This document shows, piece after piece, positions 9,377-22,504 of a DNA stretch of 64,000 bases (positions within the stretch are counted from its first letter, which is position 1; every line of letters begins with the position of its first letter). Source of the stretch: Cystobasidiomycetes sp. EMM_F5 (taxonomy: Eukaryota); assembly GCA_051047955.1 (NCBI GenBank), contig JBPGPT010000001.1, positions 124,001 to 188,000 of the forward strand, given 5' to 3'. A program made the position numbers and the translations under genes. A model generated the notes under the pieces. That model saw only the letters and a program-made list of their open reading frames with translations. It ran no database searches and was not told the origin of the DNA.

Positions 9377-9823
9377 GGTTGGACCAAAGTGCGAAAATGA
9401 CAGCAGGGTGGAGCGCAGACTGCAGTCACACCGACTGTCGATGGGACAGCTTCAGTCAGAAGAGCCTGAAGCTTACCACTACAATATTGCAAGTATTCTT
9501 GGCTTGCATGGTTCCGAAGATCTCGATTGCTTTGAAGACCACAACGATAGGCCGAATACAACGCAGTATACTCTCACAGAGCTTGCTTTTAGGTCGTTGG
9601 CCTTGTTCTACGCTCACTGCACTGCAGTTGTAGCCTCATAGTCCGTCCAATAACGAGCATCTCTTGTAGAATAGGTTGCCCTCCCACGCGTCACCGGGAT
9701 CCCCGGACGGGAAGCGACAGCTGCGATAATTAACGAGGCGAGCAGCTTTCAAACCCCAACACGCCGTAAGTGACAACGGCAGCGACGATAGAGACCTGCA
9801 GAGTCACTCGCTGCGTCCAAGTC

Positions 9824-12800
9824 ATGGAGTCTGCAAAGGGCATCGTCCGCAAAGGCTCGGGCTTCTTCAGGCGAGACAAAGGCGAGCACCATCATGACGG
9901 CGGCGAGCAACAGCAGCAGCAGCAGCATACTGCCGTGCCAGCGAACCCGATATCGGCAGTCAGACCTCTGCACGCACGGCGGGACAGCGCTTCGTCCGTC
10001 AAAGCAGCAATGCAGCTCAACCAGCACTTGATGTCATCGTCATCGTCCGAAGCAGTACCGCTGCCCTCGTACGCCTCGACGCCCGGAGGCAGAAAGAGGA
10101 GCGACAGCTTTGCTCCGTCTCCGCTTTCCGCAAAGCCCGGTCAGTTTGGCGAGCTCGTACGTCTCCATGTAGGCCGACTAATCTGAGTACTCCCCATGTC
10201 CCAGCCACTGCCATGAGTCCAGAAGACTCGCTCAAGAGTTACGAGCTATTCGAGGCACTACGGATGCGTCAGTCGCCTTCACAGAAGCCATTTTGATGGG
10301 GCTGTGCTCACTGTTATCGCCATGTATGCAGACGATCCGATACATTCGACGAATGAACAAACGGCTGCGCTCGTTGCTGCAGTCCAAGCTGCACCGCGGT
10401 CTGGGCCGGGAGTACCGACGCCGCTTCATACAGCAGTCAGATGCGCAAAGGTTCGTACTTCCTCCGTTTCTGCGTGTTGTGTGTTGCCCGCCTGTCGTTT
10501 GCTACCTGCCTGCCGTCGAACGGCAAGCCCCGCTCTCCGGGCCGGCAGCCGCAGAGGGCAGGCTGAAGCACCCATCATGCAGTCCTAATGCTGACTTTAC
10601 GTCTTCTTCTTCATTCCGCTTTCGTCTCATACACCACTCGATACATCGACGATCCTGTGCCCCACGTGCACCTCCTGCAACCTCACTCTCTGGCCTCCTT
10701 TGCACTCCTTGCCCATCACAAAACTTTCCGCCTCTTCTCTGTCAATTGCTCTTTCCAACATTGTCAATATCGACGACACGATAATCGATACCACGATGAA
10801 CATGGCCTCGAAACCGGACATGCTGCATTCCGGACTTCGCTTACATCCGCGATTGACGCACCGCTTCTCCTCGATTGATGTCCTATCCGAAACATCATGG
10901 ACTTGCAATGATGCCACTTATACTACCCCGGCCACGCATCGACAACCTAATTCTCAATCTCCAACACCACACAATCCTTCTGTGACGTATATCCCACGAT
11001 GGCTTCTTTCTCTGGTGCACAACCGATACTCGCGTATGAATGGGTCGCGCGTTGTGGTCTACATTACCGACGATCAAATTGCTTCTCTTATGCTCCGACA
11101 CCGCGATACACCTCACTTGTCTCCGCATGCACCAATGTCGTCCTCTATCGACTCCTGCATCAATGAACACGACGCCACTCTGCTCTCATTATACTCCGAT
11201 CAAATTGAACAGCTGCGAACCCTTGAGACTGTCTTGCCAGCTTGTGTCGGCGATATTAATGCTGTCGATGCAGATGGCCAGACTCCGCTACACGTAGCAG
11301 CCGCTCTTGGACGCGCTGATATTGTCAAACTCCTCCTCAGTCAACCTGATATCGTAAGTGTCGATAGTAAACTTGGCGTAACAGCGCTGAGTTTGCCATC
11401 GCGCAGAATGATGCTATCCGAGATCACAACGGTCGTACCGCTCTCGAGGTGGCCAAAGGTGCACAAGTGGCACAAGTCCTGCAAGGCAAGTTGACAATAG
11501 CCGTTCCAGCTTTTACAATTCCTAACGCATTACTACAGTCGCACGCGCTCAATATAACGAGACTTATATCTCGCTCTTGGCTGCCTATGCCGGAGCCTCT
11601 GGACAGTCGAGCCAGCGACAAAGCTTGACTGGCTATGCAACGCCAATCGCGACTGCTTCGGAGCCCATCGCTGTAGATGCGCTCACTACCAGTCTCGCCA
11701 ATACCGACACGCGAGAAGCACTGTATCGCTTCATCTCTAGGGAACGATCGTCAGGAATAGACTATTCAGCTTTGACTTCCGGGTCGAGAGGCACTACTGT
11801 CATTCACGAGGCAGCACGCAGAAGAGATGTGGATATGCTCAAGTTATGCGTTGCTCGCGGCGCTTCCCTGGTAGTTCGCGACAGGAAAGGCAAAATGCCA
11901 ACCGAGTACGCAAAGGACGATGCTGTTCGTGCTATTCTCCGCCAAGGAGCTACGAGCGAAAGCCGAGCCCTGCGTCAGTCGACATCTTCTCTCGCTAGTC
12001 TCTCTCTAAACCCGTCCGCTGGAGCTGGATCAGCCTCGGCACCCATAATGAAGGGTTATCTTAGCAAATGGACAAATATGGCACGCGGCTACAAGACGCG
12101 GTGGTTTGTCCTTCATCATGGTCATCTCAGCTACTATCGCGATCAAGAGGAGGAAGGTCAAGCTTCGCGAGGTGTCATTAGCATGGCTATCGCAACCGTG
12201 GAAATCTCGACAGACAAAGCTGCATTTATCGTTGGCACTACGCTGGGCAAGACGCCCAGATGGTTCTTGAAGGGTGCTCATCCTGTCGAGGTCATGCAGT
12301 GGATCAACGCACTCAGGACCAGCATCGAATTCGTCAAAATGGCAGATCAGGGAAATGCTTCGTTGACTATCCCGTCTTCGCCAAGTATTGGCGGAAGCAG
12401 TCCAAACATGTCGAGCTCTGCAAGTCTGCAACCTCCACAGGGGGCTATGGCGTCGTCGGCTTCCTCCATTGGCCGGTCATCCAATGCCTCTGACATATCC
12501 CTCCCCTCAAACAGGGACGGCAAGCCGGTCTTCCCTGGCATTAAGCGAACGATCACGTCCGGTACGGCCAATACTGCCAATACTGATCTTGACGGCACAC
12601 GACCAACAACACCAGAAATGACCGATGAGGAGGATGCATCAGCTTCCGGATCCCATGCACATCCACCTCATGAGGATACCTTCGTCTTCACTTCGAACAG
12701 CACAAAGACGCAAATCCAGTTGACAGAGCAACTTATCTCATCGCTGACATCGCCTGAGGCGGACCGCGATCCTGCCAGACGCAAGCAGGTCGTTACTGCT

Positions 12801-14943
12801 GCCCAACAATCTCTTCGTTCACTAGCGCAGTACTTCGACACGCACCTTGAGCAAATTACTGACCGCGAGCGGTATTTCAGCAAGCGGTGGGAGCGAGAGA
12901 TACAAGCTAAGCGAATGTGGGAAGATAACATGAAGAATGTCATATCCTCGCAAGCTGATTTGGAGCGAGAACTACAAGACACTGCAAGACAGAACGAGCG
13001 GCGCAAGCGAGTGCTGAAGGATATCAAAGCTGGTATGGACGCGGACATGGCAGCAGCTGAAGCTGGTATGGCGCCGGCTGCTGCCGCTGTCATGTCTGAA
13101 CAATCTCCTGCTACCCCGTCTGCGGCCCTGATCGGCGGAGCACTATCGCCGAGCCGCCTTCGTTCTCCAACTGCCGTCAGCCACGGTGTTATCGCGCAGA
13201 TGGAGCAGCTTGCGGCTGAGTCGGACTCTGATGATGACGACGATTTCTACGACGCCGTTGAGAGTGGGACGTTGCCCATCAAGGTAGACGAGCAAATCGC
13301 TTCACCTGGAAGTAAGGAATGGCCAGAAGACTTTAGACCCAATATACCCGAGGATGCCCTTGCGAGCTTTCAGGGTTACCGCAATCTGCGCGACAGGTTG
13401 CCCATTACCAGCGATGAAAGACCCCCTGTCTCGCTTTGGGCTATTCTCAAGGGTAGTATCGGCAAGGATCTCACTAAGATCTCTTTCCCGGTGTATTTCA
13501 ATGAGCCGACTTCGATGCTGCAGAGAATGGCTGAAGATATGGAATATTCGGAATGCCTAGACGCAGCTTCTGCCGAACAGGATTCGCTCAAACGTATAGC
13601 TTACGTAGCTGGCTTTGCAATGTCGAACTATGCTTCCACCATTGGTAGAATCGCAAAGCCGTTCAATCCCATGCTGAGCGAAACTTTTGAAATGGCTAGC
13701 TTGGACAAGCATTACAGATACGGTGAGCGTCACTCAAAGTACTCCGAAGCGCAAATGGGCTGACGGTCTTCCGGACTACAGTGAGCGAACAAGTATCGCA
13801 TCATCCTCCAATGTCGGCTTGTATCGCAGAATCGCCAGATTGGCTGTACTAGTGAGTCGACATCTGCCATTGCGCGCTAAGCTCTTCAGCTCATATGCAT
13901 CTTTCTAAAGCGGCGAAGTTGATGCCAAATCTAAGTTTTTGGGCAAATCCTTCGAGATCCGGCCGACTGGGATCGCACATGCCGAGCTTCTCCTGCCTGA
14001 AGCATGGGTATCGGGACAGGGCTACCCTGCCTCACGAGGTCGCCCAGGCTATGTCCGAGAGCATTACTCGTGGAAGAAAGTCACCACTAGCATATCAAAC
14101 TTCATCATGGGATCCCCTCAAATTGATCACTATGGCGATATGGAGATTACCAATCATCGAACCGGGGAACGGTGTGTGCTGACTTTCAAGCCTCGAGGAT
14201 GGCGTGGCAAGGATTCGTGCGAGATCAAAGGTACTGTTTTCGATGCGAAGGGTACCATTAGATGGGATCTGGCAGGCAGATGGAACGGGCAGCTAGGTGA
14301 GCGACAGTAAGCTGTTGATCTGGTTCAAAGACTAATCTCTCTGGCTTGTAAAGTCGCGCGCCGCGCCGGTGCCGGTTCGGGAGCCTTAATGCCAGATGAC
14401 GCCGTTCCTACGGTCAAAGGATCCGCCTCAGCAATTGCGCCCGAATACCTTCTCATCTGGAAGATCAATGTCCAACCGCCGAACATGCCCTTCAATCTGA
14501 CGCGTTACGCACTCACGCTTAACGATAGTAACCCGGACATCAAGAAGTACCTTCCTCCGACCGATTGCCGCTTGAGGCCGGATCAGCATGCGTTAGTCGA
14601 GATCCAGAGCTTACCGAGACCTTCAGTCAGCTGATAGTGCCTAAACCTCTACAGTTTCGAATCTGGGCAGTTTGAGCAAGCGAACAATCTCAAGGGCGCT
14701 CTCGAGACCTTTCAAAGGGCAACGCGGACGAAGCGCGAAACTGGTGAACTCCCTCCGCATAAGCCACGTTGGTTCTCTCAGCAAATGGATCCAGATACCG
14801 GTGTCCCGTATTGGGAGCCTTCGAGATCAGACGATGGCAAGGTGGAATACTGGGATGTTCGATTGGCCAATTATCACCGCTTGCAAAAGGGGGGCAATCC
14901 TGAATGGCCCAATGTCGACGAGATCTTTGGCGTCAAATTTTAG
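9824..14943 (+). CDS. Oxysterol-binding protein with ankyrin repeats, PH domain, FFAT motif and ORD (Osh1/Osh2-like)
   Basis: Ankyrin TPLH motifs, PH domain (KGYLSKWTNMARGYKTRWFVL), FFAT motif DDFYDAVE, and ORD motifs KDLTKISFPVYFNEPTSMLQRMAEDMEY, KPFNPMLSET, EQVSHHPP and LPPTDCRLRPDQ. Confidence 0.95.
9908..9925 (+). repeat. CAA(CAG)5 short polyglutamine tract in the OSBP N-terminus
   Basis: caacagcagcagcagcag is visible in the sequence. Confidence 0.8.
10451..11212 (+). other. 762-nt phase-0 intron of the OSBP gene with a distant branch-point candidate and a 628-nt AG-free zone
   Basis: Donor AAG|GTTCGT at 10451, CCTAAT/GCTGAC at 10584-10595, no AG from 10583 to 11210, acceptor AACAG at 11212. 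Splicing rebuilds an ankyrin repeat TPLHTAVRCAK|LRTLETVL. Confidence 0.8.
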
Positions 14944-18050: not shown

Positions 18051-18469
18051 GTGAGTGGGTATATCGGATGCGCAGTGCAACGGCGAGCAGTGCCCAGTCC
18101 ATCCTGCCAGCCCGCTGAGGTGGCTCACGGATCTGCGCCCATTTTTCGTGGCCTGCCTCTTCGGAAAAACAAACACCTCTGCACGCCTCTGCGACTGTTT
18201 ACTGACTGCGCTCTCCACACCTCTTCCGCTCACGTCCCATCTGGCCCCTTTCACCTCACATTCTCTGGCGTCGCGACTCTGCATTCCTTCCTCTGTGGCT
18301 CGCGCTCTGCCCCGGGCCAAATAAATCAAAAAAACTCGCCCAAATCGAAACAAAACTTTGCCCGGTCTCGCACATCAAACACGACTGGCGCGCCGATATT
18401 ATTTACAAACCGAAATCAACACTGAACCGTCTCCTCTGGTCTGACTGCTGGCAATACTCTACAATCTAG
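18051..18469 (+). other. Putative 419-nt 5' intron of the AT3-GT2 gene with a 348-nt AG-free zone
   Basis: Donor GTGAGT at 18051, last AG at 18118-19, GCTCAC at 18123 and TACTGAC at 18200, next AG is TAG ending at 18469, 27 nt before the ATG at 18497. Confidence 0.65.
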
Positions 18470-18496: not shown

Positions 18497-21400
18497 ATGT
18501 ACAGCAACAGCGGCGGTCTGGCGCAACCTTCAGGGTCGGGCGCAAACATCAACAGCATGCGAGGCAGCGACTCCTCAGTCTACGATACCATTACATCTCC
18601 CACCAACGCCCACCATCCAGATCAGCACCACATGATGCACCACCAGCAGTACGATTCTGGCATGGCGTCTCCAGGCGGCGGTGTAGGGCATCCAAACCCC
18701 CAGCTCGGCGTTGATCCTGGCTACCACTCTGTAGGTGGTGCATACACGACTGTCAACAATCCTGGCAATACAGGTGCCCTCTCTGCTGGGCCAATGGGCG
18801 GTCATCACTCGGAGCCGTCAAGTCCGACCATGCAACAAGGTGGTGGCGACGATGCAGACTCAAACGGCGATTCCTCTTCAAACGGTTCGACAAAGGTAGA
18901 CTCACGCTCACCCAGCGCATACAGAGTCGGGAGACCTGGCTACCCAAACCAAAGCGAGGTGAGTGGTGTCAAAAACACGTCCCATTGCCACTTGCCACAT
19001 TTTCACCCAAGGAATGCTAACATGTAATCTGCACGCGTGTCTTTTTTGTTTGTCAATACAGTCAAATGACGGACATCATGGCTACTCTGAAGGGTTATAT
19101 GCTTCTCGGACCGCCAACAACTCTACCGGCTACGTGGATGCTCCCTTATTTCACCCCTCCTCACCCGGGTCTGCGCAGTCACACAATACGTATGGCAGAT
19201 TCAGAACAGGCTCATACCCCGGTCTCGACTCTAGTCGGACGAGCAGTATAGGCACACACGAAGGTGCCAATATCCCTTACAACACTTCTCGAACAGCTCT
19301 CAATAACGAATGGCGGCATTCTGTCGATACCACCAATGAAATCAACGCCATTGGTGGACCAGGAGGGGAAAAGTATAGAGGATTTGACGCGTCTGATGAG
19401 AAGCTCATAGCCAAGAATGGCCAAACCTACCAACCTATTCCCCCTTCATCGCCCGCTATGGGCGTGTCGACAAACGAAAAGTCGGCAAAGGGAGACGGAG
19501 CTGGCGGAGATGGTAGTAAGAAACCCGAAGCAGCTGTCGTTTTGAGCAGAGTCAACCGTCTAGCTTGGATTGATGGTCTTCGTGGCTTGGCTTCCATCGT
19601 CATCTTTACCCATCACTTCAGCGATCTTACGTGGACCATTTCTCACCCAAATGTCCTTTCGGACGGATCTACCTACGGCTTTGTCAAGAATGGACAACTG
19701 GCAGTCGGAATGTACTTCTTACTTGGTGGTCGTGTCTTGGCTCACGGTTTCCAGCGCTCGGCATTTGCCCCTCCCAAAGTTGCAAAGGACTCGCATGGTG
19801 CAGTCATCCCCGGAGCGCCCCTCATTCGCTCAGCGGGTCCAAAGTGGCTCTCTCTGTCCAGCTCCCTCTTCCGTCGATCTATTCGTCTAGCCTTCCCGGC
19901 CATAATCATTGGCTTTATCCAATGGCAAGTCTGCCTGAGAGGGTGGACTTCCACTGCAATTCTCGCCAACGAGCAGGTCCTTCGACCGACAAATCTGTGG
20001 GAGGCGACTTGGTGCGAAATTGGCGATGGTTTTGGCGACTTCTTGCAATTCTCCCTCGACCTTTTCACAAACCCGAATCATCAATATATGCTCTATGTCG
20101 GTTCTGCCCTTTGGACTACCTACGATCAATTCTGGGGATCCACGCTCGTCTACATTATCGCCGCTCTTACTGCTCCTATGGCTTGGAAGGGTCGTTATGT
20201 CTTGTTTGCCATCATTACCGTCTCACTGTGGTGGATCAATAGCTCAAACATGCTTTACGTGATCGGTCTGTGGGTATCTGATCTACATGCATCCGGCTTT
20301 GTCCGCAAATTGCAAGATCACTGGAAGCCTACTTTACTCATCGAGGTGCTCGTCATGACTTTGGCATTGGCCATGATTGGCGGTGGTTCCACCGTTGCTT
20401 CTCCAGCTGATCGCGCCATTGGCAAAATCACCGTCTACAATGGTCTGTTTGGCTGGCAACCCAGCTTCACATGGCCACAGTACATGTTTATGAGCAACTG
20501 GATTGTCGCCACGGCCATTCTCGTCTGGGTCGAAATCTCGCACGCCATGCAATGGTTTGCGTCATGGGGTATCTTTGTCTGGATTGGCAAGGTCTCGTAT
20601 GGCTTCTACCTCTTACAATTCCTGACTCTATACGGTCTCATGCCCCATCTCGTTATTCACTTTGCCAACCAAGGCCATTCTTACTGGGATATCGTTGTGC
20701 CAGCGTACATTCTCTGCCTCCTCTTCAACTTCTTTGTCGCTTGGGTTGCGTACCACCTTCTCGACAGAATCGGTCTCAAACTCGGAAAATGGATCTGGGA
20801 TGGATTCTTTGTCACCAAGCCAAAGACGTTTGGCAGCATGCCTCTGAAATTTGCAAGGTATTTGGGCGATGTCATCGTGCACGGACCTGGTCGCGCTGTC
20901 AAGGGAACGTCGAGCTCGTTTTCATCCAAATGGGCTGGACTTTCAAAATCCGCATGGACTATTGCACACTGGCGCACACCGACTACGAGACCACCTATTC
21001 CATCGCCAACTGACCCGGAAGTTCTGTCTCAGCTGCACTCCACTCGATGGACTACTGATCTTTCCGGCGACAAGGAGGCCATGAGGTGCCACAAGCTCCT
21101 CAAGTGGCAACAATGGTCGTGGGTGTTCCATCTTTTCTGGATTCCGGGCATGACTGCTATTTGGGTCATCTACCACCCCACCGGTCAATGGACATGGGAC
21201 GGTGTTACGTTCTCCACATTATGGCGTTTCATTTGGGTGCTGTCCGTACCGAACTGTCTCGCTGGTTGGTTTGGTTTCATCACACCAGACTGGGCACCCT
21301 CAAAAGAGACTATGGACAAGAAGCCAGTATGCAGAGAACATATCCGCAACTTCTTCATCGTCCTCGTTACCAAAGGATCTAACGAGTCTGCCGTCCGTCG

Positions 21401-22504
21401 TGGCTACAACAAGCTCGTCAAACTCGAGAAGTATCACCCCGCTGTCAAGACTGTCGTGTAAGTGTTATGCATGCTATAGTCAAAGGATGTACGTTGACGT
21501 CTAGACTATCTTTCAGCCTTACCGATGAGCCGTATGTGTACCCTGATCTCCAAAACATTGTGTGCCCGAAGGACTACGTCTCTCCGCTCGGTAAAGCCAA
21601 GTACAAGGCTCGTGCGCTCGACTACCTCCGTTACCACGTCTCTCTCGGTGTCTATGACTGGATCTTGCATATGGACGAAGAATCCGTTACAGATGCCGAG
21701 ACTATCCGTCGCTGCTTCGATTTCATCCGGTATACTCCCCATCATTTCGGTCAAGGTATGATCATGTACAACGGCGAAGGTTACTGGGACAATTGGTACT
21801 TCACAGTAGCAGACGGTATTCGTGTCGGTGACGACTTGGCCCGATTCCACTTCCAGAACACAGTCATTCAAAGGCCAGTCTTTGGTGTTCACGGTTCATT
21901 CTTGCTTACCAATGGAGAAATGGAAAATGAATGTACATGGGATTTCGGCTCTCTGGCAGAAGATTTCGAGTTCTCCCAAGATGCTTGGAGAAGAGGATTC
22001 ACATGTGGAAGAGTACACGGTATTGTGCGAGAACAATCCCCAGGCACGCTCCGCGATTTCCTCAAGCAGCGAAGACGTTGGTTTATGGGTATTCGCGACA
22101 TCAAAGGCATGTACGGTCTACCGCATCTTGCTGTCAATCTCTGGACTGTCGGCGTCTTCACCCTCGCTGTTACAATCATCAACTTGCCGTTTACGCTCAT
22201 TGATACCTCCCTCACTCCGTTCTGGTTGGCACTGTTGGCAGACTTCTGCTTCATTGTGAGCACGCTGAGAGCACATTGCGGCGAGCATTTGACTGATCCG
22301 TGCACACAGACATTTATTACCATTTACACATGGGGTCTGCTCATCCAAGAGCTCGACTACGGGCAAAAATGGTGGCTCATCTGCATACATTTACCGGCGT
22401 CCATTGTCATTCAACCTTTTGCAAGTATATCTGAAGGACTGGCTGCCATTTGGGCCATGTCGAGTGAAGATTTCGGCAAATTCGAAGTCATTGCGAAGAA
22501 GTGA
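18497..22504 (+). CDS. Acyltransferase-3 domain fused to an Egghead/BRE-3-like GT2 glycosyltransferase (~1263 aa; exons 18497-18958, 19062-21457, 21517-22255, 22310-22504)
   Basis: AT3 motifs: RLAWIDGLRG..HH, FRRSIRL, LWT, GKVSYGFYL. GT2 motifs: VTKG, YKARAL, HMDEES, ADGIRVGDD, HGSF, AEDF, EQSP, KQRRRWF. Exon lengths sum to 3792 nt in frame. Confidence 0.9.

Follow-up and report, generated by a model that had tools for sequence, protein, structure and literature searches.

The stretch of DNA analyzed here, referred to as the window, comprises 64,000 nucleotides (nt) of contig JBPGPT010000001.1 from Cystobasidiomycetes sp. EMM_F5 (assembly GCA_051047955.1, positions 124,001 to 188,000 of the forward strand), and all coordinates below are those of the window. 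It carries the gene of a cystobasidiomycete yeast for an Osh1-like protein with ankyrin, PH and oxysterol-binding (OSBP) domains. One of the introns of this nine-exon gene is unusually long, is free of the dinucleotide AG in its 3' part, and holds in that same part an open reading frame (ORF) in phase with the ankyrin exon downstream. The original prediction for this locus was that the frame encodes an alternative N terminus of the protein. The AG-free architecture, which is seen twice in the 64 kb, is the robust and more interesting fact, and the question addressed here is how much weight the open frame can bear beside it.

The Osh1-like gene and its long intron

The domain order Ank, PH, Oxysterol_BP is found by Pfam both in P0085, the public model of the gene, and in its orthologue P0003, whose PDB matches include ORD chains (5h2d) and the Osh1 ankyrin domain (5h28). 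At the level tested, there is no difference from the Osh1-type ANK-PH-ORD order. In the public record, the protein stands as a hypothetical protein at NCBI (a member of its 90% cluster), and its large exon has 83 relatives, of which the nearest named ones are from Pucciniomycotina, with Cystobasidium minutum at 49% identity. The isolate has no sister taxon among the 27 genomes of its class, and its presumed family, the Microsporomycetaceae, is represented by no genome at all (PMC12697161).

The exons were placed by tblastn with P0003, a 1218-residue orthologue taken from a spliced transcript contig. The first three are given in Table 1, and the other six lie at 11407-11485, 11539-13722, 13782-13851, 13911-14296, 14354-14591, and 14655-14943. 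When joined, the nine exons give 1186 codons with a single terminal stop, and residues 1-1184 of the product align with residues 1-1216 of P0003 at 57% identity. The Pfam Ank_2 match in P0003 begins at residue 50. Across the long intron the protein reads ...TPLHTAVRCAK|LRTLETVL..., compared with CAKLGTVDLVL in P0003, CAKPGTVDLVL in P0004, and CAKQSTVEFV in P0005. The junction AK|LRT agrees with these three orthologues, and 10451-11212 is therefore an intron of the conserved isoform. Compared with the seven remaining introns, which measure 53-64 nt, this one has about ten times the usual length.

Table 1. Positions of the features discussed, in window coordinates
Feature	Position	Strand	Basis or remark
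Exon 1, MSPEDSLKSYELFEALRM then 1 nt	10213..10267	+	tblastn, P0003 residues 1-30
Exon 2, ending in ...PTPLHTAVRCAK, first helix of the first recognizable ankyrin repeat	10332..10450	+	P0003 residues 49-61, LPTPLHTAVRCAK
Long intron, 762 nt, phase 0, GTTCGT...CAG	10451..11212	+	Orthologue junctions and nine-exon model
AG-free zone (AG-exclusion zone)	10583..11210	+	Longest such run in the window
Branch-point-like CTAAT (10585) and CTGAC (10591)	10585..10595	+	Motif level
Open frame, 206 codons, in phase with the ankyrin exon	10595..11212	+	ORF list
Pyrimidine-rich tract, 72% C+T	10596..10760	+	Composition; putative polypyrimidine tract
Putative 139-codon leader	10796..11212	+	ATGs 10796 and 10802; the public ab initio model P0085 begins at ATG 11036
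Proximal branch-point-like CTCAT, with its A 24 nt ahead of the final base of the intron	11185..11189	+	Motif
Ankyrin exon, LRTLETVL...SQPDI, 47 codons	11213..11353	+	Homology; Pfam ankyrin matches on P0085
Second intron-like stretch (candidate), GTGAGT...TAG	18051..18469	+	Last 350 nt without AG; upstream of ATG 18498

The same intron is short in four genomic loci from distant Pucciniomycotina, at 65 nt (L007), 57 nt (L009), and 68 nt (L012 and L004), and its position there is shifted downstream by one base within the same codon neighborhood. The two closest loci give no intron to compare, one (L001) being a spliced transcript contig and the other (L002) starting downstream of the intron site.

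Some further observations concern the gene model itself. The intron at 11486-11538 is a homology-backed GC-AG intron (GCAAGT...CAG), which retains the conserved GAQVAQVLQ (GSDVATVLQ in P0003). The small exon at 13782-13851 encodes VSEQVSHHPPMSACIAESPDWLY, in a conserved OSBP motif region, and tblastn with P0003 gives 87% identity for it. Upstream of the gene, an open frame at 9770-10186 (MESAKGIVRKG..., with poly-Q) could be brought into phase with the OSBP start by way of 10141-10205, a GT...AG stretch of 65 nt; its codon-frame score, calculated as for the leader below, is -0.127, and the orthologue P0003 begins at the equivalent of MSPEDSL. Contigs of run X1, whose RNA nature is a guess, match 11945-12211 and 13223-13260, and none of them lies on the long intron. 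The first of these, a 267-nt contig in the PH-domain region, has 4 differences, and a close relative is therefore present, at low depth, in one other public data set.

AG-free zones and branch-point-like motifs

The only AGs within 10567-11226 are those at 10581 and 11211, and the 10583-11210 region between them has none, in agreement with the original prediction that no AG occurs until the acceptor. Counted between the flanking AGs, the run is 630 nt and is the longest on either strand of the window, ahead of runs of 350, 186, and 184 nt; in 13 related fungal loci the longest is 155 nt. About 21 AGs would be expected from the base counts of the zone (A 139 and G 95 of 615), and the AG-free stretch ahead of the acceptor is far longer than chance would give. 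Directly upstream of it, seven AGs fall within 10526-10582.

The zone starts 3 nt ahead of the branch-point-like pair CTAAT/CTGAC and ends at the acceptor. Behind the pair follows the CT-rich tract that the original prediction had likened to a fungal core promoter; its composition was borne out, with 72% pyrimidine compared with 58% in the flanking parts of the intron. At the motif level, this is the layout of a distant branch point, with the motif and a pyrimidine tract at the 5' end of the zone and a normal frequency of AG upstream. The seven other introns of the gene have a branch-point-like motif 13-21 nt ahead of the acceptor with no AG between the two. The motif CTCAT, which stands close to the acceptor in the long intron, also occurs at 17 nt in intron 13852-13910, where it is the only candidate.

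A second zone with the same layout is found in the candidate intron at 18051-18469. Its last AG is at 18118, followed by CTCAC at 18124 and then by a stretch of 68% pyrimidine, and 18119-18468 makes up 350 nt without AG. It has one or two stops in each frame and lies in a noncoding position, and the TAG at 18467-18469 stands directly ahead of the frame beginning with ATG 18498, so that no long frame enters the next exon. Since this zone shares the layout while having stops in all frames and a noncoding position, the architecture needs no coding explanation. Both zones start within 4-10 nt of a branch-point-like motif, for which the estimated chance is about 6% per zone, and each of them in addition contains a proximal motif 24-25 nt from the acceptor (in the second zone CTGAC, at 25 nt).

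ATG 18498 belongs to a gene that encodes a large membrane protein. The AG-free runs of 186 nt (20003-20188) and 184 nt (21104-21287) lie inside the long coding exon of this gene (ORF 18963-21461); they exceed the expectation under a uniform AG frequency and may reflect the T/G/C-rich coding of membrane segments.

Several other readings of the intron were tried and rejected. An intron-borne RNA gene was rejected, as no Rfam match at E <= 1 was found on either strand of 10300-11400. For a repeat, a mobile element, an introner or a duplicated exon, nothing similar was found in the window or the 13 related loci by blastn and tblastn down to an E value of 10. A fold that would bring the branch point near the acceptor is unsupported, the minimum free energy being -112.3 kcal/mol compared with a shuffle mean of -117.2 (z +1.13). 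The AG at 10581 was rejected as the acceptor because the exon would then read TCC TAA. An exitron is a coding intron whose retention keeps the frame, and 762 nt is indeed 3 x 254, but the in-frame TAA at 10586 and TGA at 10592 are the reason why this reading was also rejected. Apart from these two (TAA 10586-10588 and TGA 10592-10594), both of which lie inside the branch-point-like motifs, the 254 codons of the intron are free of in-frame stops.

The open frame, between chance and coding

The original prediction had the frame of the ankyrin exon open for at least 171 codons back into the intron, and we find it open for 206, back to 10595; it extends over 10595-11494 if the next intron is read through. 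The ATGs at 10796 and 10802 and the 139-residue leader proposed from them were recovered as described: the leader occupies 417 nt, reads MNMASKPDMLHSG...LYSDQIEQ and then LRTLETVL, and thus forms an ATG-begun frame that reaches 11213 in phase without a stop, as an alternative first exon would.

Our preferred reading, in which we place slightly more belief than doubt, is that of a noncoding AG-exclusion zone with a fortuitous in-phase frame. The intron, at a position conserved among ANK-PH-OSBP genes, would have grown to 762 nt in this lineage, and its 3' 630 nt would act as an AG-exclusion zone downstream of the distal CTAAT/CTGAC, with AGs frequent just upstream. The first AG downstream is the acceptor that homology demands. 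If, as we infer, the spliceosome uses whichever AG comes first beyond the branch point, the intervening AGs would therefore be selected against. The frame would be a side effect of this combined with luck: the lack of AG excludes TAG, the C/T-rich composition thins out TAA and TGA, and a residual chance of about 1 in 40 to 1 in 700 is left for the in-frame run. The CT tract would be a polypyrimidine tract rather than a promoter, and the leader would not be a selected coding exon and presumably is not translated.

This layout has a precedent in human exons with distant branch points. In the parts of the report of Gooding et al. (2006, PMC1431707) drawn on here, the branch point and the pyrimidine tract lie at the 5' end of an AG-free zone, AG occurs normally upstream, and the next AG on the downstream side serves as the 3' splice site. 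The cases mapped there span 100-400 nt and are all alternatively spliced, whereas the zone here is about 620 nt long and the branch point is a candidate by motif; the setting is also different, namely, a yeast gene whose other introns measure 53-64 nt. A long distance from branch point to acceptor, here a putative one, is also known in fungi, from the COF1 and UBC13 introns of Saccharomycotina, with maxima of 166, 471, and 185 nt cited for three groups (Gahura et al. 2011, PMC3239191). In those introns, as far as the excerpted parts of that paper go, a stem masks silent AGs, and processive scanning is argued against, whereas the present zone has zero AGs and no stabilizing fold. A limited literature search by title and abstract returned no fungal case of an AG-exclusion zone, which is not a claim of absence from print.

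Several observations weigh against our preferred reading. In shuffles that preserve the dinucleotide counts and hence remain AG-free, only 7 of 5000 versions of 10583-11212 had an in-phase frame open for 206 codons or more, a count that rises to 19 of 5000 when any frame is allowed, and when the leader alone was shuffled, 126 of 20000 versions were stop-free in frame. The other two frames of the leader have 4 and 5 stops, and the probability that none of the 9 falls in the named frame is (2/3)^9 = 0.026. The sole ATG in 10583-10795, at 10587, lies inside a branch-point-like motif; 199 of 5000 shuffles of that segment had no ATG whatsoever, and both ATGs of the leader have A at position -3. The proximal CTCAT could be the branch point in use, in which case scanning from the distal motif fails to explain the AG-free zone, and no predicted fold shortens the distance between the distal motif and the acceptor (z +1.13). 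Finally, another basidiomycete yeast has documented start sites within introns of coding regions, according to the sections of PMC11302930 used here. As regards the rarity of the frame, only the leader part is informative, because the CT-rich first third of the zone is nearly stop-free in all frames (0, 1, and 0 stops). Judged by the second AG-free zone, whose three frames contain 1, 2, and 1 stops per 115 codons, 138 codons in a row without a stop would be expected in about one case in five. Overall, the open frame is rarer than chance, at roughly 0.001-0.03, which is within the reach of chance and not overwhelming.

The codon-frame score, for which ten long ORFs of the window served as the training set, belongs with these observations in part. 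At +0.085 per codon, the leader exceeds all 86 off-frame control windows (maximum 0.070), and this value was reached by 3.7% of all shuffles and by 5.6% of the 126 stop-free ones. The same value falls in the low tail of 43 in-frame coding windows (minimum 0.043, mean 0.174), and the score is thus roughly neutral. The codon-position composition of the leader is not significant (chi2 8.5, p 0.20) and is below that of every in-frame 417-nt piece of the large exon (10.2-41.0), and G at codon position 1 has a frequency of 0.19 compared with 0.34. Histidine makes up 7.2% of the residues (vs 1.6%), lysine 0.7% (vs 4.1%), glycine 1.4% (vs 5.7%), and serine 14.4%, an amino-acid makeup that follows the C/T-rich base composition.

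Homology does not add to the case for coding. A search of 1,835,955,588 representative proteins with the leader gave a sole match, to P0084, the window's own ORF; Pfam gave no family (best E value 0.12), and the ESM Atlas gave no usable match (recognition score 1686). AlphaFold2, run on the leader plus the ankyrin exon as a single sequence, returned a mean pLDDT of 36, and the ankyrin part itself reached only about 50; neither the Atlas search nor this model is informative. No conservation of the frame or the peptide was found among these 1.84 billion representatives and the four distant relatives, a comparison of little power at this distance. As the orthologous introns in those four relatives are short, the leader is lineage specific.

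The public model P0085 begins at ATG 11036, within the leader, and might be taken to speak for it. It omits the two conserved upstream exons, loses the nine conserved residues GAQVAQVLQ by using an upstream GT instead of the GC-AG donor, and skips the small exon 13782-13851 (within 13723-13910), thereby losing the stretch with EQVSHHPP. The public annotation was made with funannotate 'predict' and BUSCO training, with no RNA data mentioned (PMC12697161). Being ab initio, and having lost conserved residues elsewhere at two sites, the model lends the leader no independent support. It starts inside the intron and misses two conserved exons, and the frame has therefore already misled an annotation pipeline; what P0085 shows is that the leader frame attracts gene finders, not that it is expressed.

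Alternative explanations and their implications

The alternative N terminus of the original prediction would arise from a transcription start inside the intron, at about 10600-10790, such that the 3' part of the intron becomes a first exon in which ATG 10796 or 10802 opens the 139-residue leader fused to LRTLETVL. The product would lack 58 N-terminal residues, including the first ankyrin helix, and the same DNA would have to avoid AG for the sake of the long isoform and stop codons for the sake of the short one. We regard this as possible but, on balance, unlikely. It is favored by the rarity of the open frame, by the weakly positive codon-frame score, and by the nearly complete lack of ATG over some 200 nt upstream together with the A at -3 of both ATGs. 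It also has parallels elsewhere. In Cryptococcus, start sites inside introns of coding sequences ('TRASS') yield N-terminal isoforms with different localization (Dang et al. 2024, PMC11302930), and such an intronic start giving a shorter or different N terminus is the mechanism proposed for the leader. Those cases rest on transcription start site sequencing (TSS-seq), Northern blots, and N-terminomics, whereas the leader is known from the open frame alone, and the portions of that paper considered here describe no alternative exon that is also obliged to be AG-free. OSBPL1, likewise an OSBP-family gene with ankyrin repeats, encodes the long ORP1L and the truncated ORP1S (PMC7185962), a pair of a long and an N-terminally different short form like the putative one here. 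However, by the part of that source used, ORP1S is wholly without the ankyrin and PH regions, whereas the short form proposed here would give up only 58 residues in exchange for 139 unrelated ones.

Against an alternative N terminus stand the lack of a homologue of the leader, the shortness of the same intron in four distant relatives, the nonsignificant codon-position bias, and a residue makeup that is as expected from translated C/T-rich DNA. The CT tract has an explanation in splicing, one that applies again at 18119-18300, and the start of P0085 inside the leader, being ab initio, does not count as independent support. In addition, the short form would start in the middle of an ankyrin repeat, as the Pfam and PDB ankyrin matches of P0003 begin at residues 46-51 while the intron follows residue 61. 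That the same 617 nt serve in two roles, as the AG-exclusion zone of a distant branch point and as the coding first exon of a short isoform, seems doubtful to us.

A remnant of once-coding sequence, or a young ORF with no selected function, translated now and then from stray transcripts, would also leave an open frame in the intron. The intron length is a multiple of 3, its 254 codons contain just the two in-frame stops in the branch-point-like motifs, and the codon score lies between coding and noncoding values, all of which would fit such an origin. Nothing similar exists in the window or the 13 related loci, however, at either the DNA or the protein level, there is no homologue among 1.84 billion representatives besides the window's own ORF, and the short intron of the relatives has no extra coding sequence beside it. 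For a remnant in particular, roughly 20-40 AGs would have had to disappear from about 620 nt of ordinary coding sequence, with splicing intact throughout, before it could become an AG-free intron. We consider this origin improbable.

It is equally improbable, in our judgment, that the AG-free zone is independent of the distal motif, with the proximal CTCAT (11185) used as the branch point, AGs excluded either because the many branch-point-like decoys in a long intron would otherwise give rise to cryptic acceptors or because splicing regulators bind the zone, and the frame again due to chance. Seven strict branch-point-like motifs are scattered over the zone, the last of them at an ordinary distance from the acceptor, CTCAT is the sole candidate in intron 13852-13910, and the second zone also has a CTGAC at 25 nt, as this explanation would have it. 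What it does not predict is that both zones start 4-10 nt from a branch-point-like motif (about 6% each).

If the leader were translated, a splicing constraint, the absence of AG for more than 600 nt, would be imposed on a reading frame, and two codes would overlap in the same DNA. Under the dual role, the peptide would have been written under a ban on AG-containing codons and codon junctions, so that a splicing rule would have shaped a protein sequence, and the result would be a young, lineage-specific N terminus on an Osh1-type lipid-transfer protein of membrane contact sites, in which the ankyrin region is the targeting part. Even if the frame is a matter of luck, as in our preferred reading, the AG-free stretch of about 620 nt exceeds the 100-400 nt of the human cases mapped in the parts of PMC1431707 cited above. 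The length of the zone and the second example 7 kb away suggest that, in this lineage, the choice of the 3' splice site may obey a strict rule of the first AG after the branch point over very long distances.

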